Positions 4,771 to 31,870 of a DNA stretch of 41,681 bases are shown here, one piece after another. Source of the DNA: an uncultured Rhodothermales bacterium (GTDB lineage: Bacteria > Bacteroidota > Rhodothermia > Rhodothermales > UBA10348). The notes under the pieces were generated by a model. It ran no database searches, had not been told where the DNA came from, and saw only the letters and a program-made list of their open reading frames with translations. A program made the translations under genes and the position numbers. Location: the NCBI GenBank assembly GCA_964466675.1, contig CAYXSE010000004.1, positions 1 through 41,681 on the forward strand, in the 5' to 3' direction. Within the stretch, counting starts at the first letter, position 1; each line of letters begins with the position of its first letter.

Positions 4771-4807
4771 TCGGATACTCGGGGTTCTGGGAGAATCAAT
4801 ATACGAG

Positions 4808-7836: not shown

Positions 7837-7926
7837 CGATTCACAGTCGCTGCACCTCAGGTCGTTCCTAACTGGGGACGCGTTCGTTATCTTGGCGGGC
7901 TGAATCCTGGAGAATCCCGCGCTGAT

Positions 7927-8322: not shown

Positions 8323-8353
8323 GCGCAAGATGGTCAACTAGGCGCAAAATGGT
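8316..8353 (+). repeat. 19-bp tandem duplication (caactaggcgcaagatggt / caactaggcgcaaaatggt)
   Basis: Units at 8316-8334 and 8335-8353 with 1 mismatch. The first unit contains the secG stop codon (tag, 8320-8322). Confidence 0.9.
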
Positions 8354-8355
8354 GA

Positions 8356-8379
8356 GGGACGCTTCGTCGGAAGCGCCCC
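8356..8379. terminator. GC-rich hairpin between the convergent secG and rnpB 3' ends (possible bidirectional terminator)
   Basis: gggacgcttc-gtcg-gaagcgcccc: a 10-bp stem with one mismatch and a 4-nt loop. There is no flanking U-tract on either strand, so the assignment is weak. Confidence 0.3.
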
Positions 8380-8391
8380 CCATGGTCGCGG

Positions 8392-16420: not shown

Positions 16421-18471
16421 GGTCGGTAGGCATTATTCAGGCTCGCATGAACTCCTCGCGATTGCCGGGCAAGGTTCTGATGCCGCTCGCAGAGGAGCCG
16501 GTGCTGGGGCATGTGGTGAGGCGTCTTTCATCCTGTACTCAGGTGACAGAGGTTGTGGTAGCTACCTCCACCGAGGAGGCGGACGATGCCATCGAGGAGT
16601 TCTGCAGGGTTCGCGAAATTCATTGCTACAGAGGGAGTCTGGACGATGTCTTGGACCGTCATGTGCAGGCCGCCCGCCTATTTCAGGCTGACTACGTGGT
16701 CCGGATCACCTCGGATTGTCCTGCTTTCGATGCGACGATTGTGGACGCGCTTGTGGTCGCGGCCATCGCGGGCTCCTATGACTGTTACGGCTTGATCGGC
16801 GACTATCCGGACGGGCTGGATTGCACGGTCTACAGCATGACGGCCCTGGAGACGGCCTCGAAAGAAGCATCACTCCCAACCGATCGGGAGCATGTCAGCA
16901 TGTTTCTGGAAAAGAACCCCCATCGCTTCCGGACGGGGGGATTGTCCGTGTTCTCCGGGCTGGCCAGTCACCGCTGGACCCTTGACGAGAGGGAAGACTA
17001 CGAATTCTTGAGCGAGGTATTCGACCGCTTGGAGGACCCGGCCGCGCCCTCACTGACCAATGAGATCCTGGCCATGCTTCGGGCCGACCCTTCGCTGTCC
17101 GCCAAAAATCGCGGGTTGTCGAGGAACGCAGGGTGCCAGCCGGAAAGTTTTCGATCGCCGGTCGAAACACACACGGGTCCCGCCCTCTATCGGGAGGCAA
17201 AACGACTCATCCCGGGCGGGACGCAGCTCTTATCCAAGCGCCCGGAGATGTTTGCTCCCGATGTGTGGCCGTCGTACTACTCCCGGGCCAAAGGATCCAC
17301 AATCTGGGACCTGGACGGAAACGAGTATACCGACATGAGCATCATGGCGGTCGGCGCCTGCATCCTTGGTTATGCGGACGATGAGGTGGACGAGGCGGTG
17401 AGAGAGGCCGTAGCCAGGGGCGTCAATACCACGCTGAACTGCCCAGAAGAGGTTGAACTCGCCCGGGAGATGTGTCTGTTGCATCCGTGGTTTGACATGG
17501 TCCGGTATGCTCGTGGCGGCGGCGAGGCGATGTCCATGGCGATTCGAATCGCCCGAGCCTCGACCGGTCGCGACCTGATTCTCTTTAGCGGATATCATGG
17601 GTGGGGGGACTGGTACCTGGCCGCGAATTTGGCCGATGACTCAAGCCTGGATGGGCACCTGATGCCGGGATTGCGACCGAACGGGGTGCCCCGGGGGTTG
17701 TCAGGAACCGCCGTTCCTTTTCTGGTCGAGGATATCGAGTCCCTGAAGGAGGCATGCCGAGGAAGGGAAGAGGAGGTCGCAGCCATTGTCATCGAGCCGG
17801 CTCGAGCTCACGAGGCCCCCGTCGAGTATCTGTCGGCGTTGCGTGAGGTAGCCAGCGAGTTGGGAGCGGTTCTGGTTTTTGACGAGATCACAAGCGCCTT
17901 TCGGATGTGCGCAGGAGGCATCCACCGTCGATATGAGGTCTACCCGGATGTGGCCGTGTTTGCGAAATCAATGGCAAACGGGTACGCGATGGCGGCCGTT
18001 CTTGGCACAGAGGCCGTGATGCAAGCGGCCCAGACGACGTTCATTTCCAGCACAAACTGGACGGAAAACATAGGGCCGGCGGCCGCGCTGGCGACGCTTC
18101 GGAAATACAAGCGAGAGCGTGTGGAAGACCACATTATTCCCTTGGGCACGGGTGCGAAGGAGGTCTGGAACCGGGCCGCTAAAGTCTCGGGCTTACAGGT
18201 CTCTACGTCGGGCATTCCCACCTTGGCCGGGTTCAGCTTCGATCATCCGTCGAACCGAGCGATGACCACCCGATACGTGATCGAGATGCTCAAGAAGGGT
18301 TTCCTGGCTTCGAACCAGTTCAAGCCTTCTTTTTCCCACACTTGGCGGGACCTGAAGCGTTTTGAAGAAGCGGTGACTCCTACTTTCGAGTTGCTTGCCT
18401 CACTTCCCGAGGACCACCTGCTCGAGTCGCAACCGGCACATTCGGGTTTCTTCAGATTGACCAAAGAGTAG
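16417..18471 (+). CDS. Bifunctional fusion: N-terminal acylneuraminate/SpsF-type cytidylyltransferase and C-terminal class-III PLP aminotransferase (glutamate-1-semialdehyde aminomutase-like)
   Basis: N-terminal domain: MRSVGIIQARMNSSRLPGKVLMPL...VVATS...RITSDCP. C-terminal domain, from about nt 17170: LIPGGTQLLSKRP...WDLDGNEYTDM...GYADDEV...SGYHGW...AAIVIEP...LVFDEITSAFR...DVAVFAKSMANGY (PLP Lys). The ATG at 16417 forms an ATGA overlap with the upstream stop. Confidence 0.8.
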   Translation: MRSVGIIQARMNSSRLPGKVLMPLAEEPVLGHVVRRLSSCTQVTEVVVATSTEEADDAIEEFCRVREIHCYRGSLDDVLDRHVQAARLFQADYVVRITSDCPAFDATIVDALVVAAIAGSYDCYGLIGDYPDGLDCTVYSMTALETASKEASLPTDREHVSMFLEKNPHRFRTGGLSVFSGLASHRWTLDEREDYEFLSEVFDRLEDPAAPSLTNEILAMLRADPSLSAKNRGLSRNAGCQPESFRSPVETHTGPALYREAKRLIPGGTQLLSKRPEMFAPDVWPSYYSRAKGSTIWDLDGNEYTDMSIMAVGACILGYADDEVDEAVREAVARGVNTTLNCPEEVELAREMCLLHPWFDMVRYARGGGEAMSMAIRIARASTGRDLILFSGYHGWGDWYLAANLADDSSLDGHLMPGLRPNGVPRGLSGTAVPFLVEDIESLKEACRGREEEVAAIVIEPARAHEAPVEYLSALREVASELGAVLVFDEITSAFRMCAGGIHRRYEVYPDVAVFAKSMANGYAMAAVLGTEAVMQAAQTTFISSTNWTENIGPAAALATLRKYKRERVEDHIIPLGTGAKEVWNRAAKVSGLQVSTSGIPTLAGFSFDHPSNRAMTTRYVIEMLKKGFLASNQFKPSFSHTWRDLKRFEEAVTPTFELLASLPEDHLLESQPAHSGFFRLTKE

Positions 18472-19349
18472 TGTCAGTCCCACCCTTCATCGCTGAGGTC
18501 TCCAGCAACCACCACCGTGATCTGGGTCGGTGTCTGCGGTTCGTCGATTCGGCGGCGGACATTGGCTGCGCGGCCGTCAAGTTCCAACTGTTCCACGCGC
18601 GCCAACTCTTCGCTCCGGAGATCATGGCCAAGAGCGAATTTCACCGGAGACGGGAGGACTGGGAACTGCCTGAGTCCTTCCTGCCGGAGCTATCGAGGCG
18701 TGCTCACGATCGGGGAATCGGGTTTTCGTGCACTCCGTTTCATCTGGGCGCCGTGGAGGCCGCCGCTCCGTTCGTGGATTTTTTCAAGGTCGCCTCCTAT
18801 GAACTGCTCTGGCATGGGCTTCTGCAGGCGTGCGCCGGCACGGGCAAGCCGGTGGTTCTTTCGACAGGGATGGCGACGATGGAAGAGATTGAATCTGCGG
18901 TCGCCTGCCTTCGTGTCGCCGGATGCCGCGATCTGACGCTTCTGCATTGCGTCTCCGCGTATCCGGTTGATCCGGGAGCGTGCAACCTGGCCGCGATCGA
19001 GACGCTTCGGTCCACGTTCGATTGCCCGGTGGGGTGGTCGGACCATAGTGTTCGTTCGGGTGTCATCATGCAAGCCGTACTGCGATGGGGCGCGGCGATG
19101 GTAGAATTCCACCTGGATCTGGACGGCGAGGGGGACGAGTACGCAGCCGGTCATTGTTGGCTGCCGGGGCCTATTGAGCGGGTGATCCTAGCGCTGCAAC
19201 AGGGGTCTGATGCCGACGGTTCTGGCCAGAAGGTGCCCGCTCCCGCGGAAATGGCGGACCGGGAATGGAGAGCGGATCCGTCCGATGGATTGAGACCACT
19301 GCTCTCGACGCGGGCGGATTGGGATTCTGAGGAAGCGAGCCGAAAATGA
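18471..19349 (+). CDS. NeuB-family PEP-condensing synthase-like protein lacking the C-terminal SAF domain
   Basis: FIAEVSSNHHRDL, AVKFQLF, FKVASYE, VLSTGMAT, LLHCVSAYP, VGWSDHS and MVEFHL track the NeuB TIM-barrel motifs. The protein ends after a ~60-aa unrelated acidic/Arg-rich tail instead of a SAF domain. The GTG start overlaps the upstream stop by 1 nt. Confidence 0.7.
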   Translation: MSVPPFIAEVSSNHHRDLGRCLRFVDSAADIGCAAVKFQLFHARQLFAPEIMAKSEFHRRREDWELPESFLPELSRRAHDRGIGFSCTPFHLGAVEAAAPFVDFFKVASYELLWHGLLQACAGTGKPVVLSTGMATMEEIESAVACLRVAGCRDLTLLHCVSAYPVDPGACNLAAIETLRSTFDCPVGWSDHSVRSGVIMQAVLRWGAAMVEFHLDLDGEGDEYAAGHCWLPGPIERVILALQQGSDADGSGQKVPAPAEMADREWRADPSDGLRPLLSTRADWDSEEASRK

Positions 19350-20383
19350 CACGAACAGTCATCATTCGTTGTGACGCCTCGCCCGAGATCGGATTTGGGC
19401 ATCTGGTCCGCTGTCTGGCCCTGGCCGAGGGGCTGAGGCAAATTCCCGACTGGAAAATCCTGTTCGCGATGAATGGCGGGGCGCTGGAAATGGTCGAGGA
19501 GGCGGGATTCTGTGTAATTCAGCCGCAGGGCGGATTCTCCCCCAGCTATGGCGAGGATGAATGGCTTGAATCTCTTGTAGGGGACGAGGCCGCCTCCATC
19601 GTCATCCTGGATGTCAGAACGGACCTCACTGCCCGGCTGCTGCGAGAGCGTCATCCAGACTGCGTGATCGTCGTCCTCGATGATCCCGGAGAGCGTAGAC
19701 TCAGCGCCGACCTGGCCTTCTATCCGCCCGCGCCACAGATGGCGGAAATGACCTGGGACGGGTTTCGAGGGAGTCTGTATTCCGGCTGGGAGTGGGTGAT
19801 TCTGCGGTCGGATTTCGATCGACCTCGAGCTGCTTCTGCTTCGCGCGAGACAGGCGTCCCCCGAGTTCTGGTTACCATGGGAGGAAGCGATCCAGCCGGA
19901 CTGACTCTACCGGTTCTCAGGGCCCTGACTGCACTGGGCGACAATTTCGATGCAGACGTGGTTCTTGGCCCCGGTTTTCAGGAGGAGGAGGCTGTTCGGT
20001 CGTACATCATGGAATCGGGATCGAGATTCCGAATCCTGACACAAACAAGGTCTATGGCCGACCTCATGGAGGCGTCTGACCTTGCGATCGCCTCTTTCGG
20101 CATGTCCGCCTACGAACTTGCAAGCCTGGGTGTCCCGGCCGTCTACCTGTGCCTCTCCGGTGATCATGAGGCGTCGGCCGGGGCCTTCGTGGCGGCTGGC
20201 ATTGCGGTCAGTCTGGGGCACCACCGGTCCGTATCGGCAGCACAGATTCAGAGTGCCACGAGATCGCTGCTCGTGGATTCGCCCGCCAGACGCCTCATGG
20301 GATCGTTGGCCCGCAGCACGGTGGATGCCAAGGGAGCCGGCCGCATTACAAAGGTGATTCAAGAGCGTGCCGAGGCCGGATGA
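19346..20383 (+). CDS. pseG: PseG/SpsG-like UDP-sugar hydrolase (GT-B fold)
   Basis: VIIRCDASPEIGFGHLVRCLALAEGL is the characteristic PseG N-terminus. The C-terminal half is MurG-like (VLVTMGGSDP...IASFGMSAYELASLGVPAV). ATGA overlap with the upstream stop. Confidence 0.75.
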   Translation: MTRTVIIRCDASPEIGFGHLVRCLALAEGLRQIPDWKILFAMNGGALEMVEEAGFCVIQPQGGFSPSYGEDEWLESLVGDEAASIVILDVRTDLTARLLRERHPDCVIVVLDDPGERRLSADLAFYPPAPQMAEMTWDGFRGSLYSGWEWVILRSDFDRPRAASASRETGVPRVLVTMGGSDPAGLTLPVLRALTALGDNFDADVVLGPGFQEEEAVRSYIMESGSRFRILTQTRSMADLMEASDLAIASFGMSAYELASLGVPAVYLCLSGDHEASAGAFVAAGIAVSLGHHRSVSAAQIQSATRSLLVDSPARRLMGSLARSTVDAKGAGRITKVIQERAEAG

Positions 20384-21645
20384 AGGGTGGCAGGAAGGCC
20401 ATATTCGAGCTGCCAGCAGGGCCCAGGGCGTCAGAGTTCGGAATCCCGACCGCTGTCATCTTCGGTTCGGGTAGTCTGCTGGAAATAGATCCGCCTGAGG
20501 GTCCCATTTTGTTCGTCGTCAGCGAATCTGTGGCGACTGAGGTAGTAGAGGAGCTAGCGGACCGCTGGCATGCTCGGGGTCACGAAGTGATTACCGTGGT
20601 GAAACCGCCAGGGGAGCCGGAGTCGGCGGATGTGGATCGTGTTGCGGCCGGTGTCTCAGGCCTGATGGGCCGGGGCGACTTGGGGCGCGGACCTCAATCC
20701 GTCGTCGGCCTGGGCGACGCAGCGCGGGGGCCTCGATCCGTGGTCGGCCGGGACGACGCACGGCGCGCGCCTCGATCCGTCGTCGGCCTGGGAGGCGGAA
20801 GTGCGCTTGATTTTGCGAAGGGCCTGGCCGCGCTGAATGATGCCGAGTGTTCCATCACAGACTTCGAGTTCGGCCGAGAGCAGATCGGAACCCCGTTGCC
20901 ACTCTATTTGGCCCCTTCCACCTGCGGGTCTGGTAGCGAAGTGACACCCTACGCTGTATTCACCAATACCCATACGCGGAGGAAGTTTACACTCGCCCAC
21001 CCGGCGCTGAGGGCGGTGTCGGCGAACGTCGACCCAGACCTGCTAGATTCGCTTCCCCCCGGGGCACGACTGGGGACGTCTCTGGACGCGTTCACGCACT
21101 GTCTGGAGGCCCTCCTCAATCGGGCGGGGCCCGGTAGCGCGACGCGCATTGCCGAGGCCGGTCTGCAGATCGCTTGGCGGCGCATCAAGAAGGTCAACCT
21201 CACCCGAGAAGACCTTGTCGATCTGTCGAGGCTATCAGTTTATGGCGGAGTAAGCATTTCCCACCGTCGAACAGGCTTGATCCACACCCTCTCTGTGGCG
21301 TTTTCCAGCCTTACGAGTGTTTCGCACGGTATCTTGAACACGCACCTGCTTCCCTTTGCCATTTCACACAACCTGCCGGGTTATTCAGGACTGCTCTCTG
21401 CGGTAGTTTCCAAAATGACCGGGCGAGCCCCGTCCACCGACCAGCGCGCGATGGCAGAGTTGACAGCGTGGACAAGGAGCCTGGTCGGATCGACCCTCCC
21501 GTTCTCCGGCGAATCGGTTCGAAAGAACCAGGATGACCTGGTAGCTCGGATTCTTCAGGATTCAGGCCTTCCAGGAGTGAGCCATGCCGAAATTTCCGCC
21601 TCCACACTCAGGTCACTAGTTCTACGGATCGCCGATGCGGCTTGA
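20380..21645 (+). CDS. Iron-containing (group III) alcohol dehydrogenase family protein with an internal tandem-repeat insertion
   Basis: GLGGGSALDFAKG (GGGSxxDxAK), LDAFTHCLEAL and SHGILNTHLLPFAISHN metal/NAD motifs. ATGA overlap with the pseG stop. Confidence 0.8.
   Translation: MKGGRKAIFELPAGPRASEFGIPTAVIFGSGSLLEIDPPEGPILFVVSESVATEVVEELADRWHARGHEVITVVKPPGEPESADVDRVAAGVSGLMGRGDLGRGPQSVVGLGDAARGPRSVVGRDDARRAPRSVVGLGGGSALDFAKGLAALNDAECSITDFEFGREQIGTPLPLYLAPSTCGSGSEVTPYAVFTNTHTRRKFTLAHPALRAVSANVDPDLLDSLPPGARLGTSLDAFTHCLEALLNRAGPGSATRIAEAGLQIAWRRIKKVNLTREDLVDLSRLSVYGGVSISHRRTGLIHTLSVAFSSLTSVSHGILNTHLLPFAISHNLPGYSGLLSAVVSKMTGRAPSTDQRAMAELTAWTRSLVGSTLPFSGESVRKNQDDLVARILQDSGLPGVSHAEISASTLRSLVLRIADAA
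20668..20784 (+). repeat. 39-bp in-frame tandem repeat x3, plus the ancestral partial unit downstream
   Basis: Units at 20668-20706, 20707-20745 and 20746-20784 encode GRGDLGRGPQSVV / GLGDAARGPRSVV / GRDDARRAPRSVV. GLGGGS follows directly. The units are diverged, with several substitutions each. Confidence 0.9.
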
Positions 21646-22147
21646 CCAAAAAGAGAGGCCCGTTTTCGACCGCAGGGCGTCCGGGGCAGAGTTTGCTCGG
21701 ACCCTCACGGCCTCATGTGATTGGTTCGCAGGAGTGCCAGACAGCGTCTTTCGGCGCGTCATCCCGCATCTTCCGGACTGGCATTTTGCACCCCGGGAAA
21801 ATCACGCGATATCGATGGCATTCGGCGCGCGCCTGGCCGGATTGATGCCCGCGGTGTTGATGCAGAACAGCGGCGTTGGGCTGAGTGTGGATGCGCTGCT
21901 CGGGACCTTCCGACTGTACGGGCAGGGCTTGCTACTCGTGGTGTCGAATAGAGGCGTCCTTCCATGGGAAGAGATTCAGCACCAGGACTGGGGCAAGGTC
22001 ACCATGCCCATGTTGGACGCGTTGAACATCGACCGGGTCTCCTTCGACGATGAGGGGCTCGCGGGAGTCCAGCGCGCGAGCGAAATGGCCGTACGGGAGC
22101 GGGCCATCGTTGCACTCACCATCGAGAGGGGCAATATCGATGAGTGA
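21635..22147 (+). CDS. ThDP-dependent decarboxylase, alpha (N-terminal pyrimidine-binding) subunit; sulfopyruvate/phosphonopyruvate decarboxylase-like
   Basis: 170 aa: FAGVPDSVFRRVIPHL...APRENHAISMAFGARLAGLMPAVLMQNSGVGLSVDAL...LLLVVSNRG resembles ComD and the Ppd N-terminal half. It overlaps the upstream gene by 11 nt. Confidence 0.7.
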   Translation: MRLDQKERPVFDRRASGAEFARTLTASCDWFAGVPDSVFRRVIPHLPDWHFAPRENHAISMAFGARLAGLMPAVLMQNSGVGLSVDALLGTFRLYGQGLLLVVSNRGVLPWEEIQHQDWGKVTMPMLDALNIDRVSFDDEGLAGVQRASEMAVRERAIVALTIERGNIDE

Positions 22148-22607
22148 TCGTGCCCGGGCCATCGGTGAGATTTTGGAGGCTAACTCCCAGGCGTTCGTGG
22201 TGCTGAGCAACGGGCTGACCTCGAGGGAAGCCGCGCATTTTCACCGGTCCTCACGATGCTTCTACATGCTGCATGGCATGGGGGAGGCGTTGGCCGTCGG
22301 CATCGGGTTGGCGAAGGCTCGTCCGGACATAGAGGTCGTCGTCATTGAGGGAGACTACAACGCCCTCATGGGACTGGCGTCCTGGAGCCTGATGCCCGTT
22401 CCAAATCTGGAGTACTACGTGCTCCAGAACGGTGTCGCCGAGACGACGGGGGGCCAGCCGGTCCCGGCCCTCCCCGCTCTTCCATCTTGGTGTCGCACCG
22501 TAGACATAGAGGCTGGCATGGCCCAGACGCCAAATCCTCCATCGCCAGAAAGCATCTGGAAGGATTGTCAACAGTGGCTAAAACAGACGACGCAAGAGAT
22601 TGAGTAG
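22140..22607 (+). CDS. ThDP-dependent decarboxylase, beta (C-terminal pyrophosphate-binding) subunit; sulfopyruvate/phosphonopyruvate decarboxylase-like
   Basis: MSDRARAIGEIL...VVLSNGLTSREA...MLHGMGEALAVGIGLAKARPDIEVVVIEGDYNALMGL (ThDP-binding GD..N-type motif). The ATG at 22140 overlaps the alpha-subunit stop. The track start at 22050 was rejected. Confidence 0.7.
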   Translation: MSDRARAIGEILEANSQAFVVLSNGLTSREAAHFHRSSRCFYMLHGMGEALAVGIGLAKARPDIEVVVIEGDYNALMGLASWSLMPVPNLEYYVLQNGVAETTGGQPVPALPALPSWCRTVDIEAGMAQTPNPPSPESIWKDCQQWLKQTTQEIE

Positions 22608-23664
22608 AAGGACGTCATTCCCCACCGCCCACGGTTCCTTCGAGATCGGTGAAGGCCTGCCCACCTACCTGATCGCGGAGATCGGCCTCAACCACAACGG
22701 TAGCGAGGAGTTGGCGCGCGAGTTGATCTACGAAGCGTCACTGGCAGGGGCCAGTTTCGTCAAATTTCAAAAGCGCGATCCGTCGAGTCTCGCCACCGCC
22801 GCGTTTCTGGATGCGCCGTTCGAAAAATGCCCCCTGCTCGGGAGCACCCAGCGGCAGGTGAGGGAGCAGCTGGAGTTGTCCCTGGAGGCCTATGAGAGAC
22901 TGGCCGCGTACTCAGCCAGCCTGGGTCTGGTGTTTTTTGCATCCGCATTCGACATCCCAAGCCTCCATTTTCTGGTCGATGCGGGCGTTGAGATAATAAA
23001 GATTGCCAGCCACAGCATTACCAACGGCCCACTCCTGGAGCGGGTGGCCGAGTTGAGAATGCCGGTGGTCGCGAGCTTAGGTGGGGCTACGGGCGAGGAG
23101 CAGGATCGAGCCGTCGAGATACTGTCGGGCAACCCGTTGGTGCTGCTCCATTGTGTGAGTTCCTATCCCACTCCCGACGCGATCGCTCGCCTCGATACGA
23201 TCGGGTATCTATCCAGTCGATACGGGGTGCCGGTTGGCTTTTCGAGTCACGAGGTCGGGACCGAAGTGTCCGTCGCCGCCTCTGTGCTGGGGGCCAGTCT
23301 TGTTGAACGCCATTTCACTCTTTCCCGCTCCATGGTTGGACTGGACCATACAATCAGCCTGGAGCCCAGTGAGTTCGCCGATATGGCGCAGAAGATTCGC
23401 AGACTCCACTCTTGCCGGGGGGTCTCAATGGGGCTGGACGATGGAGAGATGGGAGCCCGAAATAACTACCACGTCAGTATCTGTTCTCTTCACGACATAG
23501 AGGCTGGCACGACACTGGAAGCTTCGATGCTGGCCTGCAAGCAGCCTCTTCGCGATTCAGGCCTCTACTTTACCGGCCTGGAACTGGAGGCTGTAGTCGG
23601 ACATGTGACGAACACGGACCTGAAGGCCGATTCGCCTATCCCGCGAGCCGCCATCACCGCGTAA
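22600..23664 (+). CDS. pseI: Nonulosonic acid synthase (NeuB/PseI family) with a C-terminal SAF domain
   Basis: TYLIAEIGLNHNGS, FVKFQKRDP, IKIASHS, VASLGGAT, LLHCVSSYPTP, VGFSSHE and VERHFTL, plus a SAF-like C-terminus (ICSLHDIEAGTTLEASML). Whether it is a Pse-, Leg- or Neu-type synthase cannot be told by eye. The symbol is given from context (pseB/C/G neighbours). TTG start. Confidence 0.8.
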   Translation: MSRRTSFPTAHGSFEIGEGLPTYLIAEIGLNHNGSEELARELIYEASLAGASFVKFQKRDPSSLATAAFLDAPFEKCPLLGSTQRQVREQLELSLEAYERLAAYSASLGLVFFASAFDIPSLHFLVDAGVEIIKIASHSITNGPLLERVAELRMPVVASLGGATGEEQDRAVEILSGNPLVLLHCVSSYPTPDAIARLDTIGYLSSRYGVPVGFSSHEVGTEVSVAASVLGASLVERHFTLSRSMVGLDHTISLEPSEFADMAQKIRRLHSCRGVSMGLDDGEMGARNNYHVSICSLHDIEAGTTLEASMLACKQPLRDSGLYFTGLELEAVVGHVTNTDLKADSPIPRAAITA

Positions 23665-24885
23665 TTGCAGACGATACTCATCATAAGCGGCAGTATCGAG
23701 GCGGTAGCTGGGATCCGGTTGGCCAAGGCCATGGGTTTGTTCGTGGTGGTGAGCGATGGAAATCCCGACGCTCCCGGGTTCGCGGACGCAGACGAATGCC
23801 TCCTGGTGAGCACGTATGACGTGGAGGCCACGGTGAAGACGGCAAGGGCCTTCAACGACGCCCGCCGCCCCATAAACGGGGTCGTCTCCGTGGCCGCCGA
23901 CGTACCACAGACCGTCTCAGCAGTGGCAAAAGAGCTGAATCTACCCGGAATTTCGGCCTCGGCTGCATTTCTGGCCGCCGACAAGCTGGCCATGAAGAGA
24001 CAGTTTCAAGAAGATGGAATACCGATCCCCTGGTTCAGCGCGGTTGAGTCTGTGGGCCACCTTCGAGAGCTGGTATCTGAACGGGGATTCCCGCTCGTCC
24101 TGAAACCGGTCGACAGCCGTGGCGCAAGAGGCGTACTTCGGCTTCGGCCGGACGTCTCCCTGGATTGGGCCTATTCGATTTCCCTCGAGGAATCGCCCAC
24201 GGGTCGAGTCATGGTCGAAGAGTTCTTGCCTGGTCCCCAACTGAGTACCGAATCGGTTGTGATGGGTGGCAAGGGTTACACCGTAGCATTCTCGGATCGT
24301 AACTACGAGTTTTTGGACAAGTATGCCCCGTTCATCATAGAGAATGGGGGGCAGATGCCGAGCTCGCTCCCCGCTTCGGTACAGATCGCGGCAGCCCAGG
24401 TGATCGAATCCGCTGCGGCCAGTTTGGGCATTACCGATGGGGTGGTCAAAGGTGACGTGGTCGTGACCGAGGGTAGGCCCTATATCATCGAGATCGCCGC
24501 GAGGCTGAGCGGTGGGTATTTTTGCACCCACCAAATTCCTCTGAGTACAGGTGTCGACCTCGTAGGTGCGGCGTTCGACTTGTCCCTTGGCAATCGGATA
24601 GACCCAGAACGCCTGGTGCCCACAAAGGAGCAGCATGTGGCTCAGCGATATTTTTTTCCTGGACCTGGGCGGATCTCGAGCGTGACTGTGCCCCCCGAAT
24701 TTGTCGGCAACGACTCCATCCCATTTTTGGAGATGCGATTGGAAGTCGGAGACGTGATCGGGTCCTTTGTGAGCCACCCCTCGCGTGCCGGTGTTGTGAT
24801 CACCACCGGACCGACCCGGGCAGCGGCTGTAGGCCTGGCTCGGGACGTCGCGGAGAACATCCGCATCGAGACGGTCGAAGCCTGA
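23665..24885 (+). CDS. ATP-grasp domain ligase
   Basis: FPLVLKPVDSRGARGV...VMVEEFLPGPQLSTE...IIENGGQMP...GVVKGDVVVTEGRPYIIEIAARLSGG is the ATP-grasp core. The TTG start directly abuts the pseI stop. Confidence 0.75.
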   Translation: MQTILIISGSIEAVAGIRLAKAMGLFVVVSDGNPDAPGFADADECLLVSTYDVEATVKTARAFNDARRPINGVVSVAADVPQTVSAVAKELNLPGISASAAFLAADKLAMKRQFQEDGIPIPWFSAVESVGHLRELVSERGFPLVLKPVDSRGARGVLRLRPDVSLDWAYSISLEESPTGRVMVEEFLPGPQLSTESVVMGGKGYTVAFSDRNYEFLDKYAPFIIENGGQMPSSLPASVQIAAAQVIESAAASLGITDGVVKGDVVVTEGRPYIIEIAARLSGGYFCTHQIPLSTGVDLVGAAFDLSLGNRIDPERLVPTKEQHVAQRYFFPGPGRISSVTVPPEFVGNDSIPFLEMRLEVGDVIGSFVSHPSRAGVVITTGPTRAAAVGLARDVAENIRIETVEA

Positions 24886-26892: not shown

Positions 26893-27864
26893 ATGCGAGT
26901 ATTGGTGACCGGAGGGGCCGGGTTTATTGGCTATCACCTTGTGGAGCGATTGCTCAGGGACGGCCATGAGGTTACATCGATCGACAGCCTGAATGACTAC
27001 TATGATCCGACTCTCAAGGTTGCCCGGTTAGACCAGATCGACTCGACCGAGGCCTATCGGTTTATCCAAATGGACATCTCCGATCGGGAGGCGCTGATGG
27101 AGCTGTTCGAGGCATCTCGATTCGAGGTGGTCGTCAACCTGGCGGCCCAGCCCGGGGTGCGGAACAGCCTCAAGAATCCGTTCTCTTACGTGGACAGCAA
27201 CGTCGTCGGATTCTTGAGTGTCCTGGAGGCCTGCCGGCATCACCCTGTCAAGCACCTCGTCTATGCGTCATCCAGTTCGGTTTATGGGACAGGTTCCACG
27301 GTTCCCTATTCGACCGATCAGCGCGCGGACCGCCCGACTTCGATCTACGCGGCCACCAAGAGAGCGAGTGAACTCATGGCCTACAGTTATTCGGAGCTCT
27401 ACGGGATTCCGAGCACTGGGCTGCGGTTTTTCACGGTCTACGGGCCATGGGGCCGGCCGGACATGGCCTATTTCAAGTTCGCCGAACTCCTTCGCAACGG
27501 CGATACCATCCCCGTCTACAACAACGGCGAATTGAGTCGGGACTTCACGTACATCGACGACATTATCGAATCAACAGCTCGAGTGATTCCTCTGGCTCCC
27601 GAAGCGAACGTGCCCCATGTCCTGTTCAACATCGGAAGGGGAGAGCCGGTGAACCTGCTCGCCTTCATCACCATACTCGAAGACGAATTGGGAATCTGTG
27701 GCACCAAGGAATTGTTGCCCATGCAGCCGGGGGAGATGTATACGACCTACGCCGACACTCGGGACCTTGAAGGAGCAGTCGATTTCGTCCCACAGGTTTC
27801 TCTCAGGGATGGAATCCGACGCTTCGCGGCTTGGTACCGGGAGTACCGGGGAGTGAAAGGCTAG
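26893..27864 (+). CDS. NAD-dependent SDR epimerase, UDP-glucuronate 4-epimerase-like
   Basis: MRVLVTGGAGFIGYHL, NDYYDPTLKVARL, YASSSSVYG, YAATKRASE (YxxxK) and RFFTVYGPWGRPDMA are the hallmark strings of the CapI/Gla-type UDP-GlcA 4-epimerases. Confidence 0.8.
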   Translation: MRVLVTGGAGFIGYHLVERLLRDGHEVTSIDSLNDYYDPTLKVARLDQIDSTEAYRFIQMDISDREALMELFEASRFEVVVNLAAQPGVRNSLKNPFSYVDSNVVGFLSVLEACRHHPVKHLVYASSSSVYGTGSTVPYSTDQRADRPTSIYAATKRASELMAYSYSELYGIPSTGLRFFTVYGPWGRPDMAYFKFAELLRNGDTIPVYNNGELSRDFTYIDDIIESTARVIPLAPEANVPHVLFNIGRGEPVNLLAFITILEDELGICGTKELLPMQPGEMYTTYADTRDLEGAVDFVPQVSLRDGIRRFAAWYREYRGVKG

Positions 27865-29171
27865 GCTGCTGGGCCCATGGCAATCTGCACCACCAATTCC
27901 GCGACTCGAGCCGAAGCGCAACCGTCATTCTCGTGGTTTAGAGCGGGCAAAGATTCTCGAGCCGCCGCTCTAAGCGAATTGGCGTAATCCGGATCAGTCA
28001 GAATTCGGTCCAGTAGTCCCGCGAGTTCAGTCGCGCCTCTCACACTCCTGACACCGTCGGATTCCTCATAAAACGGCTCGATGGGTCTTGCGCGCGCATC
28101 CAGAATGACGCACGGTCGGTCGAGAATGAGAATCTCGGTAACGAGGCTGGATTGGGATGTGACGACTACATCCGCCGCTCGGATCAGGGTGGCCTTCTCG
28201 CGTACGATAGTGCCGCGCGAATAGTCCACATGCAGAAGGTTGACACCCTGCTCAGCGAACCATTTACGGTAGTCGGACAGCTCGGCTACGGTAGGTTCTC
28301 TTCCCGGCCTCTGGCTCGATTCGCCGGGATGCGGTCTGACCGCGACCAGCGGAGCCGGCATAAGACTCGATACGGCCTCGGCGAAGATTTCGTTCGCCTT
28401 CATGAGCCCAATGCCGATTTCAGTAAAGGCCATGACCGATCCCGACGCAAAGACCGATGCATATAACACCAGCGGAAGATTGTGGGGGATGCCCAGGCTG
28501 TCACGCGCTTCCTTCTTGCTCTGGCGCACAGCGTCTTCGTAGAGTACGTCCCACTGTGGCGCACCCGTCACATGGACGCGCTGTGGGTCCGCACCCGACT
28601 CAATGAATATTTCTCTCTGCCTCGACCCATAAACTGCTGAGTGCCAAGGGGTAGTCCGCATGGAGGGATCCGACGCTTTCAGGAGGTTCCCATGCGCCAG
28701 CTCGATTACCGGGATCCCTGCCTGGTCGGAGAGCGCCTGGATGACTCGCTGCCCCGAGCTCAGGCAGGACCGCATAACCACGGCCCTGAGATCAGAGGTG
28801 TCGATGAGCCTTCTCATCACGCGAGCGATCAGAAGCTGGTTCTCCGCCATCGAAAGGATGTGCTTGACCAAATCGCTCCCCCCGGATGAGAGCAAGTTGG
28901 CCTGGGCTGTTTCGAACGCGGAGGCGGCACCGGGCGTACTGATGCCTGCTGCGAATCTCTTGCCCAGTGCCTTCGACGCCTGAGCGGCGTATTCCGCGTC
29001 TTCCTCCCGCGCGAACTCGTGGAAGCCGGCCGCCAGCACGCCGCGTTCCTCGAGCAGCTCTCGCATGGGCGGTTGGTTCATGATTGGCCGAGCGCCCAGA
29101 CGAGCGGCCTCTTCAACCACCTTCAGGTATTCTTCAAAGGCGAAGTCGAAGAAGAGGATGTCTCCGTTCAT
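27861..29171 (-). CDS. Putative GT-B-fold transferase (capsule-synthesis / glycerophosphotransferase / SpsB-like); candidate glycan-assembly enzyme
   Basis: 436 aa from the ATG at 29171 (ATGA overlap with the upstream gene's stop); the track's extension to 29303 was rejected. Two Rossmann-like halves (VVMRSCLSSGQRVIQALSDQAGIPVIELAHG; PLVLYASV...VRPHPGE...ADVVVTSQSSLVTEILILDRPCVILD). The family assignment is tentative. Confidence 0.45.
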   Translation of the reverse strand: MNGDILFFDFAFEEYLKVVEEAARLGARPIMNQPPMRELLEERGVLAAGFHEFAREEDAEYAAQASKALGKRFAAGISTPGAASAFETAQANLLSSGGSDLVKHILSMAENQLLIARVMRRLIDTSDLRAVVMRSCLSSGQRVIQALSDQAGIPVIELAHGNLLKASDPSMRTTPWHSAVYGSRQREIFIESGADPQRVHVTGAPQWDVLYEDAVRQSKKEARDSLGIPHNLPLVLYASVFASGSVMAFTEIGIGLMKANEIFAEAVSSLMPAPLVAVRPHPGESSQRPGREPTVAELSDYRKWFAEQGVNLLHVDYSRGTIVREKATLIRAADVVVTSQSSLVTEILILDRPCVILDARARPIEPFYEESDGVRSVRGATELAGLLDRILTDPDYANSLRAAARESLPALNHENDGCASARVAELVVQIAMGPAA

Positions 29172-31870
29172 ACCCCAGCCCCCTCCGTATTGGCCTTGAG
29201 CCAGGCCCTGACGAGGCCGGGCGAGATCTCGAACTCCATGAGCTGACCGAGATTCAGTCCGTTGACCGTCATGATTTGCCGCCAGATCGGGTCCAGCGCC
29301 CATGTCTTGGCTACTCGGCGAATGTCGGCGGTTAGCCTTGCCGAGTCGTGGCCAAGAACAGTCGCTTCATAGTGTTCCAGGGCGGCCCGGTAAGTTGTCT
29401 TATCGATTTGCACGAGACTGGTGCACGAAGGGCACCGCTGTCGCGCAACAGGATGGCCCGCGATGGTCTGCTGCTGAATGACGAGCTCCGACCTGCACTC
29501 TGGACACCGACACGCCAACTCGGCATTCACCATCTGGGGTAGGACACCGGTCACTTCGGTGACCTGAATCGGTTTGGCCTCCCCACTGGCACTCCTCGAC
29601 GTGCTCCGGATCAGGTCTGCAATCTGGCCGACCTGGCTATCCAGCGTGTAATGCTCTGCAACGAACTCCCGATAATGTCTTGAGTGATAATCGGGCGAGG
29701 TAATCTGGTCCACCGCCTCTTCCACGGTGTTAAACAAGACGTCCGAGGGCCACATATCGCGGGCAAACGGGAAATTGTGGACCACCGGCTTCATCCCGCA
29801 AGTCATGGCCTCCGCGATTGTATAGCCAAAACTTTCATGTGTACTTGTGGAGAGTAGATAGTCCTTGTCTGACAGGAAAGCGTGGATGTCGGGCTGCCAG
29901 TCATTCATCATCACGTTGTTGGTGAGTCCCAGCTCCTCAACCATGTGATTCCAGTACAGCTTAAGCGCGGGGTCCTGAAACGTACCGGCCACATGCAGGC
30001 GGTACTTCGGATCCCTTTTTACCAGAATATCCAGTATCTGGAGCGCCAAGCCAGGATTTTTTCGACCATGGAGATACCCCACGAGAGCGATGTCAAACCC
30101 GACTTTCCGTTCTCGGAAGGAATAGCGGGACATGTCCACGCCATTCGGGATGTGCTTGACGTCCGTACGCTCGCGAAGGCCCGGGACCCTACTGGCAACG
30201 ATTTCCGCGAGATGATCGGCGACGACAACAAGCGTATCCACATGATCCCACTGGACCGTCAGTGGCATGTCCGTGAACGCTTCGAAGCGATGCAGGCGGC
30301 ATATCACGGCCTTCCGCCGTGCGATGTCCTGTCTCGATGCCCAAATAAGAGGGTCGTTACACCATTCGAACCAGCAGACATCCGCCCATTCCATCGCGTT
30401 CAAGATGTCCTCCCGGGTGACAACAACAAACTTTCGCGCGTCCATGCTCGGAATCAGATCGCGAATGATGTCCGAGAGAAACTGATCCAGGCCCTTGGAG
30501 ACCAGGAATGCGACCTTGAGGTCTTCCACTCCGTCATGAGTATTCACGCCAAGGCGCGCCGCTGCGTCAGGGGCCAGGATCGAGGCCAGTCGGTTCTCCA
30601 ACCGTTTGGCGGCCTCATCTTCCCCAACGGCGCTCGCCACCTGAACGAGCATATGAAGGCAATCGGCGTCCTCTGCGTCGAGCAGAAGCGCGGAGGTCAA
30701 TCGATTTATCGCTAGGGCCGCCTCTCCTAGCTTCCACGCGATGCGTGCCTGAAGCGATATCAGAGGAAGCGCGAGCTCGCTGTTCTCCTCGTCGAGTTCG
30801 GCGATGAGGGTGCGAGCCCTTGCTGGATCCTCGGCCTCCAGTGCGAGCGAAGCCGCCTCAAGGACCTCGGCGGCCGATTCTCCCTCGACCGGAGCGGTCG
30901 CTTCCGCCAGCGACTGGCGCAACCGATCGAGTTCGGTGGGAATCTCACTCATTCGCTCCAGCAGGAAACGAAATGCCTCTTCGGCTTCCTGGGCTGTCGT
31001 GTCCGGCTCTCGTCCGGCCAGAAGCGCTTCCACCACATCCGCACACTCGAGGCCACACCGATAGACTGTTGAGAGGACCTGAGCTCGCTGACGAATCAAG
31101 CCTAGTACCACCTCATCGTCTACCTGCGAGAGCCGTTGCAACAGCCGGCATCCCACCATTAGCGCCAGAAGGTTCACTACCGCGCGCTCGACCGACATAT
31201 TCTTGGGATGCGAGAGGGAAGCATCGTGCTCCCGTCGCATGTAGGACCCGTGCTCCAGGACGCGGATCCGTCGGTCCGGGTAGGCCGCGCACATTCGCGT
31301 CAACAGGACGAAGTCCTCGCTTGTCCGAAACAACCCGCCCGCGAAGTGGGGAAGCGCCTCGGCCGTTCGCATCATAGTGCCCGCCTGCAAGGCCCTCATT
31401 TCGCCTCCAAATACCAGCTCCCTCAGGAGCTCTCGCCCCGTCATGCCGTCGAAAATGAGTCTGTCAAATTGCTTCGATTCCGGGACGCCATCAATCACGA
31501 ACGTGATCTCAGGCATGGAAACGAACAGGACGCTCTGGTCCTCTAGCTCCAACTGCGCCGCTTCTGAGAACGCCTGGAATCCGCTCAGGTAGTCATCGTC
31601 ACCACACAGCATGAACAGCGGAGTTCCGCAGTTCTCGACCCCATGACGCGCGGCCTCGGCGGCGCCGCCATTTTTTTCTCGTGCTGTAAAGCGCGCGCTC
31701 GACCGTTTCGCGAGGTCTCTGAGTCCTGCCTGGACCTCCGGGGACGAAGCATCATCTGCAATCAGGAGGGGCAACCCTTCCCACCGACCATCGGCCACAT
31801 CTTGCTCTACGAACTCCAGGCGTTCGTAGGTATGCATCACGATGGTAACCTTCGACTCCGACTGACTCAT
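29168..31870 (-). CDS. 900-aa multidomain glycosyltransferase: GT2-like N-domain, helical/TPR-like linker, GT4 (Glycos_transf_1) domain, CxxC...CxxC zinc ribbon, ~80-aa C-terminal domain
   Basis: GT2: VTIVMHTYER...LLIADDASSPE...FMLCGDDD. Helical region: ALEAEDPARARTLIAEL...AINRLTSALLLD. GT4: VGYLHGRKNPGLALQIL...HVAGT...STHESFGYTIAEAMTCGMKPVV (Ex7E). Zinc ribbon: CRCPEC-x20-CPSC (nt 29411-29512). Confidence 0.75.
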   Translation of the reverse strand: MSQSESKVTIVMHTYERLEFVEQDVADGRWEGLPLLIADDASSPEVQAGLRDLAKRSSARFTAREKNGGAAEAARHGVENCGTPLFMLCGDDDYLSGFQAFSEAAQLELEDQSVLFVSMPEITFVIDGVPESKQFDRLIFDGMTGRELLRELVFGGEMRALQAGTMMRTAEALPHFAGGLFRTSEDFVLLTRMCAAYPDRRIRVLEHGSYMRREHDASLSHPKNMSVERAVVNLLALMVGCRLLQRLSQVDDEVVLGLIRQRAQVLSTVYRCGLECADVVEALLAGREPDTTAQEAEEAFRFLLERMSEIPTELDRLRQSLAEATAPVEGESAAEVLEAASLALEAEDPARARTLIAELDEENSELALPLISLQARIAWKLGEAALAINRLTSALLLDAEDADCLHMLVQVASAVGEDEAAKRLENRLASILAPDAAARLGVNTHDGVEDLKVAFLVSKGLDQFLSDIIRDLIPSMDARKFVVVTREDILNAMEWADVCWFEWCNDPLIWASRQDIARRKAVICRLHRFEAFTDMPLTVQWDHVDTLVVVADHLAEIVASRVPGLRERTDVKHIPNGVDMSRYSFRERKVGFDIALVGYLHGRKNPGLALQILDILVKRDPKYRLHVAGTFQDPALKLYWNHMVEELGLTNNVMMNDWQPDIHAFLSDKDYLLSTSTHESFGYTIAEAMTCGMKPVVHNFPFARDMWPSDVLFNTVEEAVDQITSPDYHSRHYREFVAEHYTLDSQVGQIADLIRSTSRSASGEAKPIQVTEVTGVLPQMVNAELACRCPECRSELVIQQQTIAGHPVARQRCPSCTSLVQIDKTTYRAALEHYEATVLGHDSARLTADIRRVAKTWALDPIWRQIMTVNGLNLGQLMEFEISPGLVRAWLKANTEGAGV

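Follow-up and report, generated by a model that had tools for sequence, protein, structure and literature searches.

A rare clade of predicted split thiamine diphosphate-dependent decarboxylases forms the core of a conserved cassette with a NeuB paralogue in pseudaminic-acid-type glycosylation loci

We analysed a 41,681-nt stretch of DNA from an uncultured Rhodothermales bacterium (contig CAYXSE010000004.1 of assembly GCA_964466675.1), referred to here as the window, with a focus on positions 20380-22607. This region encodes an iron-containing alcohol dehydrogenase (Fe-ADH) followed by two short open reading frames (ORFs), alpha and beta, and it lies within a plus-strand sugar operon of the pseudaminic-acid (Pse) type, in which 13 tightly packed genes extend from approximately 13.3 to 27.9 kb (Table 1). 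An initial annotation had read the two ORFs as the pyrimidine-binding (PYR) and pyrophosphate-binding (PP) halves of a thiamine diphosphate (ThDP)-dependent enzyme that resembles ComDE or phosphonopyruvate decarboxylase (Ppd) but lacks a middle domain, with a group-III Fe-ADH gene directly upstream, and both points were borne out by profile matches. It had left the pair unlinked to the gene that begins just outside its coordinates, a NeuB paralogue with a SAF domain (NeuBlong, 22600-23664), which proved to be the invariant partner of the pair.

Alpha matched the N-terminal half of the Ppd model TIGR03297 (E = 1e-20, 74.0 bits) and the ComD model (E = 7e-15, 55.3 bits), and beta matched the C-terminal half of TIGR03297 (E = 2e-17, 63.5 bits), the ComE model (E = 5e-15, 55.9 bits) and, above its cut-off of 21.9 bits, PF02775 (26 bits). 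The middle (TH3) domain is absent from the pair. The closest solved structure was RhiE/RhiF (PDB 9IZ3), a naturally split phosphonopyruvate (PnPy) decarboxylase, to which alpha was matched at E = 1e-7 as a single sequence and at E = 3e-19 as a family profile (9IZ3_A) and beta at E = 7e-13 (9IZ3_B). Placement in a different ThDP family, which the initial annotation had considered, was not indicated, with acetolactate synthase (ALS) matched only at E = 0.02. A collection of 5.8 billion proteins contained 158 alpha homologues, nearly all of approximately 170 aa and 45-72% identical over their full length. The catalytic Glu55, within an R-E-N-H motif, was invariant in all 38 aligned alpha homologues and aligned with the RE(D) glutamate of RhiE; the QNSG and W-E-E-x-Q-H motifs were likewise invariant across the family. 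Given 158 homologues of the same length with an invariant catalytic Glu, alpha and beta are therefore not a chance pair of ORFs. In beta, G71, D72 and N97 were invariant, the GD(G/Y)...N metal motif and TTGGQ are kept, and the GDG-X(24-27)-N pattern of PP domains is present, the window protein reading GDY where most relatives read GDG. The two genes overlap by 8 nt (ATGAGTGA), an overlap also present in 10 of 11 annotated loci, and comparable overlaps join the Fe-ADH gene to alpha (11 nt) and beta to the NeuBlong gene (8 nt). These features strongly support the prediction that alpha and beta together make up an active 2-oxo-acid decarboxylase that depends on ThDP and is split by nature into two subunits.

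We gathered related loci by exact-protein look-up, by a scan of 185,579 species genomes and by a metagenome scan, and obtained a set of 56 non-redundant loci with an alpha identity of at least 42% (approximately 640 kb in total, each covered to 10 kb on either side of the match). They derive from Desulfuromonas, Maridesulfovibrio, Acidobacteriota, Kordiimonas, planctomycete-like contigs and metagenomes, and were annotated by tblastn with the window proteins and with Escherichia coli PrpB as a probe for the phosphoenolpyruvate (PEP) mutase family; the counts for beta adjacency and for the ATP-grasp gene come from the first 51 of the 56. Individual loci are cited by number (L001 and so on) where they must be told apart. 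The initial annotation had also raised the possibility that the two ORFs are what is left of a decayed single gene. Such a pair would be the remains of a broken single-chain decarboxylase, or an inactive pseudo-enzyme, and in favour of this one could cite the existence of single-chain Ppd enzymes and the GDY of the window beta. The split is, however, conserved across several phyla, with beta adjoining alpha in 44 of 45 loci; all catalytic and cofactor motifs are invariant; the degree of full-length identity noted above indicates purifying selection; and RhiEF and ComDE are themselves naturally split enzymes. We therefore regard decay as excluded for practical purposes.

The pair is nevertheless remote from its characterised relatives. 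Its closest curated families are Ppd and then ComDE, but all of its scores against these models fell 2- to 4-fold below the equivalog cut-offs (312.5 bits for TIGR03297, 147.95 for ComD, TIGR03845, and 221.5 for ComE, TIGR03846). An exhaustive search of 1.84 billion cluster representatives recovered 829 relatives at E = 1e-3 and only 10 at E = 1e-30. RhiE/RhiF, from the rhizocticin pathway of Bacillus subtilis (PDB 9IZ3/9IZ4), likewise consists of separate PYR and PP subunits of approximately 170-190 aa without a middle domain and shares with the window pair the catalytic Glu, QNSG, GDG...N and (S/T)TGGQ, but is only about 35% identical to it. We compared 41 alpha and 40 beta sequences of the window clade with RhiE/F, with relatives adjacent to a PEP mutase (PepM) gene (L129 and L128) and with relatives from Nitrospira and Bathyarchaeota. 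Approximately 15 positions common to RhiEF and the PepM-linked relatives are replaced throughout the clade. In alpha, RENH replaces RED(S/E), SNRG replaces SWRG, WEExQH replaces (N/K)DAxEH, RGN replaces KGV and D86 replaces Asn, the individual changes being D56N, N86D, S90G, P98G, W105N, D112E, A113E and E115Q. In beta, LH(G/A)MGE stands for (I/V)GSMG and YY for HV (G45H, H92Y and V93Y), and the approximately 33 residues that follow TGGQ in RhiF are deleted; the corresponding RhiEF motifs read RED-S, SWRG, NDAVEH, GSMG and HVV. Several of the clade-specific positions border on the catalytic Glu and the conserved His loop, and the alignment suggests that the substrate pocket has been altered and has gained acidic residues. 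The new acidic residues (E112, E113 and E49 of beta), together with loss of the His found in PnPy enzymes, would argue against an anionic phosphonate or sulfonate as substrate. We conclude that alpha and beta form part of a rare clade, one related as a sister group to the PnPy decarboxylases (RhiEF, Ppd) and the sulfopyruvate decarboxylases (ComDE) but separate from both.

This clade was found only as the core of a four-gene cassette. The NeuBlong gene lay directly downstream of beta in 43 of 43 assessable loci, so that the order alpha, beta, NeuB is invariant, and the Fe-ADH gene lay directly upstream of alpha in 39 of 43. Stop and start codons overlap between the cassette genes in most loci, as expected of a translationally coupled unit. 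The association also held in the reverse direction: the best 120 homologues of NeuBlong were 52-79% identical to it, and the three that we picked because their contigs were absent from the alpha match list (56-66% identity; from Desulfuromonas acetexigens, Maridesulfovibrio hydrothermalis and a planctomycete-like contig) all carry Fe-ADH, alpha and beta genes directly upstream. In two loci, one planctomycete-like (L139) and one from Sulfidibacter corallicola (L012), the cassette occurs by itself, and the 10 kb around it contain no further sugar genes. The L139 copy (7754-11053) is flanked by transposase genes, an RES/Xre toxin-antitoxin pair and a 54-aa cytidylyltransferase fragment, a setting that suggests either that the four genes travel together or that a larger island has here been reduced to this copy. 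An apparent fusion of Fe-ADH to alpha in Sulfidibacter was rejected, as a TGA stop is followed at once by an ATG and the two are separate genes. Elsewhere the cassette sits in or near glycosylation loci of the pseudaminic-acid type, which are flagellin/Maf islands (L001, L002, L004, L136 and L137) or surface-polysaccharide loci (L003). We interpret the cassette of Fe-ADH, alpha, beta and NeuB paralogue as the functional unit.

In the phosphonate pathways with which the closest relatives are associated, the PEP enzyme is PepM. The initial annotation had found no PepM gene in the window, and our searches agreed: two tblastn probes, E. coli PrpB and a PEP-mutase-family protein taken from one of the loci, matched nothing in the window at better than E = 0.6, and the motif EDKxxxxxNS occurred in none of its six frames. 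Across the 56 related loci, no PEP-mutase-family gene was present within 10 kb of alpha (0 of 56). The PrpB probe was effective, because it recovered the PepM genes of L129 and L128. The first of these loci, whose alpha is 38% identical to that of the window, carries a canonical PepM (EDKLFPKVNS) followed by alpha, beta and Fe-ADH, and the second carries a near-canonical PepM (EDQAFPKTNS) directly upstream of alpha and beta; such PepM-adjacent pairs are 35-38% identical to the window pair. A more distant but widespread split alpha/beta clade from Nitrospira and Nitrospiraceae (approximately 35% identity) has a neighbour of the PEP-mutase/isocitrate-lyase superfamily in 25 of 70 loci (L016-L085), located 1-2 kb away on the opposite strand (for example, at 8144-8971 in L059). 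We did not accept this clade as a positive control for PepM, as the neighbour's motif is EDNVYPKRCS rather than EDKxxxxxNS; it is also unlike the methylisocitrate-lyase motif KRCGH.

These results bear on the possibility, raised in the initial annotation, that the pair is a true PnPy or sulfopyruvate decarboxylase, with PepM or sulfolactate enzymes encoded elsewhere, and that the glycan carries hydroxyethylphosphonate (HEP), 2-aminoethylphosphonate (AEP), isethionate or taurine. The best HMM and structure matches of the pair are indeed Ppd, RhiEF and ComDE; the best curated match of the Fe-ADH is a phosphonate-cluster enzyme; a class-III aminotransferase and a cytidylyltransferase are encoded in the operon; and public (JGI automatic) annotation calls the homologues sulfopyruvate or phosphonopyruvate decarboxylase subunits, where it does not call them hypothetical proteins. 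A HEP-type cluster such as L129 even has the same parts list as the cassette, namely a PEP enzyme, a decarboxylase and an Fe-ADH, with single-chain Ppd (TIGR03297; AepY, Fom2) and phosphonate-cluster Fe-ADH (TIGR03405; PhpC/FomC class) being the top curated families for the window proteins. The PEP enzyme of Ppd systems, however, is PepM, and in the cassette a NeuB stands in its place; the same holds for RhiEF, whose partner is PepM (RhiH), whereas the window clade always has the NeuB paralogue and never PepM nearby. PepM depends on a coupled decarboxylase, which is usually its neighbour (PMC8942020). Since PepM adjoins the 35-38% relatives but none of the 56 loci, the phosphonate or sulfonate reading is disfavoured, and the sub-cut-off scores and the clade-wide replacement of residues shared by RhiEF and the PepM-linked enzymes count against it as well. 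For the sulfonate branch, ComD/ComE of coenzyme M biosynthesis has the same split architecture and is the second-best curated family, but the cassette hosts are bacteria with flagellin or surface-glycan loci and without ComA/B/C: no scanned ORF of the window matched ComA, ComB or ComC, neither these nor another source of sulfopyruvate appeared among the Pfam families of the 10 related loci with annotation, and genes related to cysteate were missing from the related loci as well as from the window. We also considered whether the class-V aminotransferase at 12012-13178 might be an AEP transaminase (PhnW) and rejected this, as it is SufS/EgtE-like (178 versus 62 bits). We conclude that the clade is independent of PEP mutase and consider a phosphonate or sulfonate product quite improbable.

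The Fe-ADH met both Pfam thresholds (PF00465, 85.5 versus 31.3 bits; ADH_Fe_C, PF25137, 40.6 versus 27 bits), placing it in group III, and its GGGS loop and Asp/His metal motifs (DAxxH, IHTLS and HG) align with those of nine orthologues. Among curated families it came closest to the phosphonate-cluster Fe-ADH (TIGR03405, PsrA/PhpC class), although its 100.9 bits fall far short of the 423.7 required, and its nearest solved structures were a Thermotoga iron-containing ADH (1vhd/1o2d), followed by 1,3-propanediol and lactaldehyde reductases. The window copy contains an in-frame tandem repeat (Table 1) that appears in the protein as a 35-residue insertion just before the GGGS nucleotide-binding loop, duplicating the strand ahead of it (RGPxSVVGLG). 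This insertion is absent from the nine orthologues. It may have arisen by slippage in the recent past, may be particular to this strain and alter the activity, or may be an artefact of the assembly.

Both NeuB paralogues of the operon scored below the equivalog cut-offs of the characterised synthases (399.65 bits for NeuB, TIGR03569, and 340.25 bits for PseI, TIGR03586), with 245.8 and 186.2 bits, respectively, for NeuBlong and 158.4 and 150.3 bits for the short paralogue, NeuBshort, whose gene adjoins that of PseG in the window and in L003, L007 and L097-L100. In NeuBlong, the Neisseria meningitidis NeuB (NmNeuB) residues E25, K53, Q55, K129, H215, E234 and H236, which we take to be the PEP, metal and catalytic residues, were invariant in 120 of 120 clade members. 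Two presumed sugar-side positions differ: NmNeuB E134 is replaced by Ser in 117 of 120 members and R314 by Gln in all 120. As these changes lie on the side presumed to hold the sugar, the aldehyde substrate of NeuBlong is probably unlike that of the classical synthases.

The remaining genes of the window are listed in Table 1.

Table 1. Features of the window discussed in the text, with their positions and the matches that identify them
Feature	Position	Strand	Evidence and remarks
Class-V aminotransferase, SufS/EgtE-like	12012-13178	-	178 bits vs. 62 bits for PhnW
PseB, UDP-GlcNAc 4,6-dehydratase (inverting)	13117-14352	+	TIGR03589, 497.9 bits; Pfam Polysacc_synt_2
PseC, UDP-4-amino-4,6-dideoxy-AltNAc aminotransferase	14349-15518	+	TIGR03588, 536.3 bits
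Aldo-keto reductase	15515-16420	+	PF00248, 91.6 bits; variable neighbour, in only part of the related loci
CTP_transf_3 cytidylyltransferase (KdsB/SpsF-like) fused to class-III aminotransferase (GSA-like), 688 aa	16405-18471	+	PF02348 + PF00202
NeuBshort, short NeuB paralogue, 292 aa, no SAF domain	18471-19349	+	PF03102, 188.9 bits
PseG-like UDP-sugar hydrolase	19346-20383	+	TIGR03590, 129.4 bits, below cut-off of 153.55
Group-III Fe-ADH, 421 aa, first gene of four-gene cassette	20380-21645	+	PF00465 + PF25137 (ADH_Fe_C)
In-frame 39-bp tandem repeat within Fe-ADH gene, 2.8 copies, 81% matches	20685-20792	+	Tandem Repeats Finder (TRF) score 153
ThDP decarboxylase alpha subunit (predicted), PYR domain, 170 aa	21635-22147	+	TIGR03297 N-terminal half; ComD
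ThDP decarboxylase beta subunit (predicted), PP domain, 155 aa, ATG at 22140	22140-22607	+	PF02775 (TPP_enzyme_C); TIGR03297 C-terminal half; ComE
NeuBlong, NeuB paralogue with SAF domain, 354 aa	22600-23664	+	PF03102, 220 bits; SAF
ATP-grasp carboxylate-amine ligase, L-amino-acid-ligase (LAL) type	23665-24885	+	LAL_C2, ATP-grasp_3, ATPgrasp_N
GH57-like protein, 666 aa	24886-26886	+	PF03065, 61.8 bits, N-terminal 160 residues only
Short-chain dehydrogenase/reductase (SDR) epimerase/dehydratase, last operon gene	26893-27864	+	PF01370, 191 bits
TagB/TagF-fold (Glyphos_transf-like) protein	27861-29303	-	PF04464, 34.8 bits; weak BFO_1060-family glycosyltransferase and TIGR04396 matches
Glycosyltransferase with GT2 and GT4 domains, 900 aa	29168-31870	-	PF00535 + PF00534
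Coproporphyrin-dependent-type haem operon, complete	32028-41436	-	beyond the glycosyltransferase genes

The operon is recognisable as pseudaminic-acid type by PseB and PseC, both of which exceed their equivalog cut-offs (407.75 and 423.5 bits). The true start of PseB is probably near 13340, as the model match begins at residue 76; a plus-strand ORF at 12303-13304 (333 aa) that might have been taken for the first operon gene has no family match and is the antisense shadow of the class-V aminotransferase gene. The latter is divergent from the operon and adjoins a gene for an Atg22-like major facilitator superfamily transporter (10643-12139), and an Omp85/BamA-like protein is encoded at 4613-6526. 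The genes for the TagB/TagF-fold protein, a candidate transferase of the modified sugar, and the GT2/GT4 glycosyltransferase are convergent with the operon, and these neighbours suggest that the window belongs with the polysaccharide loci. The haem operon beyond them encodes glutamyl-tRNA reductase, porphobilinogen deaminase, uroporphyrinogen-III synthase, 5-aminolevulinate (ALA) dehydratase and a chlorite-dismutase-like HemQ, along with uroporphyrinogen decarboxylase, a HemY-type oxidase, glutamate-1-semialdehyde (GSA) aminomutase and ferrochelatase. The best synteny to the window was found in L007, from a metagenome-assembled genome named 'Betaproteobacteria bacterium RIFCSPLOWO2_02_FULL_62_17'.

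Compared with the canonical Pse pathway (PseB, C, H, G, I and F), the window shares PseB, PseC, a PseG-like hydrolase, two NeuB-family synthases and a cytidylyltransferase, but it has no PseH, neither NeuB reaches the PseI cut-off, and the cytidylyltransferase is KdsB/SpsF-like and fused to an aminotransferase. It has in addition the Fe-ADH, the ThDP subunits, the ATP-grasp enzyme and the GH57-like protein. The fusion protein, which the initial annotation had described correctly, matches only KdsB-type models, and no PseF model, in its cytidylyltransferase domain; in most other loci the two activities are encoded by adjacent genes, and L137 instead has a fusion of the cytidylyltransferase with PseG. 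The same annotation had drawn a pathway from decarboxylase through transaminase to CMP activation, which is not supported, as the aminotransferase and cytidylyltransferase genes accompany the cassette only variably. Its picture of the locus thus stands and its interpretation in part: the architecture of the enzyme was supported and the phosphonate logic was not. The SDR resembles dTDP-glucose 4,6-dehydratase and GalE, with scores below both cut-offs. Orthologues of the GH57-like protein (approximately 650-690 aa) are present in 10 of the first 15 loci, including L001-L003, L005 and L007, and its gene nearly always accompanies that of the ATP-grasp ligase; a PDB sequence search gave only a marginal match (E = 0.003), and no function was assigned to it. 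Between these two genes in Desulfuromonas acetexigens (L137, 12481-14108) lie genes for a PIG-L-family de-N-acetylase and a formyltransferase, an insertion suggesting that N-acetyl groups on the sugar are exchanged for N-formyl groups in this species.

The lack of PseH is of interest for the role of the pair. No acetyltransferase domain occurs in any operon gene between 13.3 and 27.9 kb, where the genes abut and leave no spare room, and none was found in the annotated related loci. The ATP-grasp enzyme, whose best solved relative is the L-amino acid ligase BL00235, is encoded in 25 of 28 assessable loci. These observations could be accommodated if alpha/beta and the Fe-ADH acted, independently of NeuB, on a common small 2-oxo acid such as oxaloacetate (the carboxylate analogue of PnPy and sulfopyruvate), hydroxypyruvate or 2-oxoglutarate, the ATP-grasp ligase then attaching the resulting hydroxy acid or alcohol to the 4- or 7-amino group left free without PseH; the initial annotation had included action on another 2-oxo acid among its options. 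Such a role would agree with the C3 acids handled by characterised members of the family and with the Fe-ADH, which is nearest to small-aldehyde reductases and to the models of 4-hydroxybutyrate dehydrogenase and phosphonoacetaldehyde reductase, and a central metabolite would require no supply gene. It leaves unexplained, however, why alpha/beta is tied to NeuBlong in 43 of 43 loci when the tie to ATP-grasp is looser: in L004, L012 and L139 the four-gene cassette persists with no ATP-grasp gene within 10 kb. The acidic residues in the active-site loop would also disfavour an anionic dicarboxylate. On balance, we think this role an unlikely one.

The initial annotation was right to call the arrangement unusual for a nonulosonic-acid locus. 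Our full-text literature search found no paper linking a ComDE- or Ppd-like enzyme to flagellin, pseudaminic-acid or nonulosonic-acid loci, and the relevant papers that it returned concerned the Shewanella sfm operon and RhiEF, the latter a review. The only case of a ThDP enzyme in a nonulosonic-acid flagellin locus that the search returned was sfmABCDE of Shewanella oneidensis, which encodes a short NeuB, an IlvB/ALS-like ThDP enzyme, an SDR reductase, a methyltransferase and an ATP-grasp protein, all needed for a 274-Da Pse-like nonulosonic acid on flagellin; this sugar carries a nitrogen-free unit of 236-264 Da (C9H16O7 plus up to two methyl groups) (PMC3765264). In size and type, SfmA (290 aa) corresponds to NeuBshort (292 aa) and SfmE (412 aa) to the window ATP-grasp enzyme (406 aa), but SfmB is a 581-aa ALS/IlvB-like protein where the window has the ComDE-like split pair, and SfmC is an SDR where the window has the Fe-ADH. 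The flagellar locus L136 (GCA_021731365.1, 6694-20516) contains a split alpha/beta pair and a 563-aa ALS-like ThDP enzyme, together with two NeuB paralogues, an SDR, a GFO/IDH/MocA oxidoreductase, two methyltransferases and an ATP-grasp ligase, and thus combines an sfm-like set with the cassette. We therefore rejected the idea that alpha/beta is a non-orthologous replacement of SfmB; the sfm system is analogous, not equivalent, to the cassette.

The most speculative option of the initial annotation included carboligation. Alpha/beta might transfer an activated unit of two or more carbons from a 2-oxo acid onto a keto- or aldehydo-sugar intermediate in the manner of YerE (yersiniose), with the Fe-ADH then reducing the new side-chain carbonyl, so that a branched or lengthened sugar would arise either ahead of the NeuB step or following it. 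ThDP decarboxylases often have carboligase side activity, and the product of PseB, whose equivalog is present here, is a 4-keto sugar. The Shewanella flagellin glycan, moreover, needs both a ThDP enzyme and a reductase (PMC3765264). The known sugar carboligases are, however, ALS-like and possess a middle domain, the presence of both an ALS-like enzyme and the alpha/beta pair in L136 indicates that the two are not interchangeable, and the cassette persists in loci without PseB or PseC nearby. A carboligase role accordingly strikes us as very improbable.

Taken together, the intact split enzyme, its distinct clade, the cassette with NeuB and Fe-ADH and the independence from PepM make a picture in which we have good confidence. 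The probable task of alpha/beta is the tailoring of a sugar of the cell surface or flagellum, and not phosphonate synthesis. The obligate coupling to NeuB shifts the weight toward a version of the most speculative option of the initial annotation, the decarboxylation of an ulosonic acid. All ThDP decarboxylases act on 2-oxo acids, and NeuB enzymes produce such acids. NeuBlong may thus play the part of PEP mutase and condense PEP with a sugar aldehyde to form a 3-deoxy-2-ulosonic acid, that is, a 3-substituted pyruvate, which alpha/beta would decarboxylate to a 2-deoxy aldehyde one carbon shorter; the Fe-ADH would then reduce this aldehyde to the alcohol. The net effect would be a PEP-driven two-carbon extension of an aldehyde, with the release of CO2 drawing the sequence forward. 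The resulting deoxy(amino)polyol or deoxy sugar could decorate a nonulosonic acid of the Pse type, itself made by PseB, PseC, PseG and the short NeuB and activated by the cytidylyltransferase, or could feed the second NeuB paralogue. We prefer the order NeuB, alpha/beta, Fe-ADH because a 3-substituted pyruvate from NeuB would be a legitimate substrate for a ThDP decarboxylase, and the joint work of a ThDP enzyme and a NeuB gene in Shewanella flagellin glycan synthesis provides a precedent (PMC3765264). As a whole, with NeuB in the place of PepM followed by decarboxylation and reduction, this is the best explanation that we can offer, though we offer it tentatively, and we hold to the specific order of steps slightly more loosely still.

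Several points weigh against this proposal. We know of no alpha/beta-family enzyme that acts on a sugar acid, the characterised relatives taking C3 acids (PnPy and sulfopyruvate), and nonulosonic acids are mostly ring-closed in solution. The Fe-ADH, as noted, resembles reductases of small aldehydes. In L005, L014, L135 and L138, NeuBlong is the sole NeuB within 10 kb of PseB, PseC, PseG and the cytidylyltransferase, and there it may be the nonulosonate synthase itself, in which case decarboxylation of its product would compete with CMP activation. Gene adjacency gives no reaction order, the part assigned to the changed residues is read from an alignment, and the PepM negatives cover no more than the window and, in the related loci, 10 kb on either side of alpha.

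The reverse order has to be weighed as well. In the rhizocticin pathway the aldolase RhiG acts after RhiEF, and ATP-grasp ligases act later still. By analogy, alpha/beta could turn a small 3-substituted pyruvate into an aldehyde that NeuBlong would join with PEP to form a 4-hydroxy-2-oxo acid, a PEP-dependent counterpart of RhiEF followed by RhiG, and the LAL-type ATP-grasp enzyme of the operon could later join this acid to a sugar. The obligate adjacency of alpha, beta and NeuB fits this order equally well, the nearest characterised enzyme does feed its aldehyde into a C-C bond-forming step, of aldol type (PMC12141560), the ATP-grasp enzyme is of the type found in rhizocticin-type clusters, and NeuBlong, without R314 and E134, may not bind an N-acetyl-hexosamine. 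The Fe-ADH, present in 39 of 43 loci, would nonetheless compete for the aldehyde and be left without a clear role, NeuBlong would again have to be reconciled with loci where it is the only NeuB beside a full PseB/PseC/PseG set, and no conserved gene would supply the unusual 2-oxo acid. We see this order, too, as an unlikely one.

Under the preferred order, in which NeuBlong acts before alpha/beta, the cassette could be a hitherto unrecognised device for decarboxylative two-carbon homologation that yields 2-deoxy higher-carbon amino sugars or polyols for flagellin and surface glycans, the aldehyde being either reduced by the Fe-ADH or extended again by a second NeuB. This reading is doubtful, but if true it would also account for masses that have so far lacked an assignment, among them that of the nitrogen-free C9H16O7 unit carried by Shewanella flagellin.

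The alpha/beta pair represents a new and rare subfamily of a known kind of enzyme in a new, conserved genetic context, and it is probable that this enzyme has a new substrate. The cassette is rare yet phylogenetically wide. The names 'sulfopyruvate decarboxylase' and 'phosphonopyruvate decarboxylase' given to cassette members are in all likelihood mistaken, a point of consequence when genomes are mined for phosphonate pathways with Ppd as a marker. Nonulosonic acids on flagella, S-layers and capsules bear many unexplained substituents, and the enzymes that make these are mostly unknown. The cassette supplies a concrete, testable hypothesis in this area, a new ThDP reaction on sugar acids, and it has cultivable carriers in Desulfuromonas acetexigens, Maridesulfovibrio hydrothermalis, Sulfidibacter corallicola and Kordiimonas lipolytica. 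Ulosonate decarboxylation, if true, would be a new type of reaction in sugar biosynthesis.

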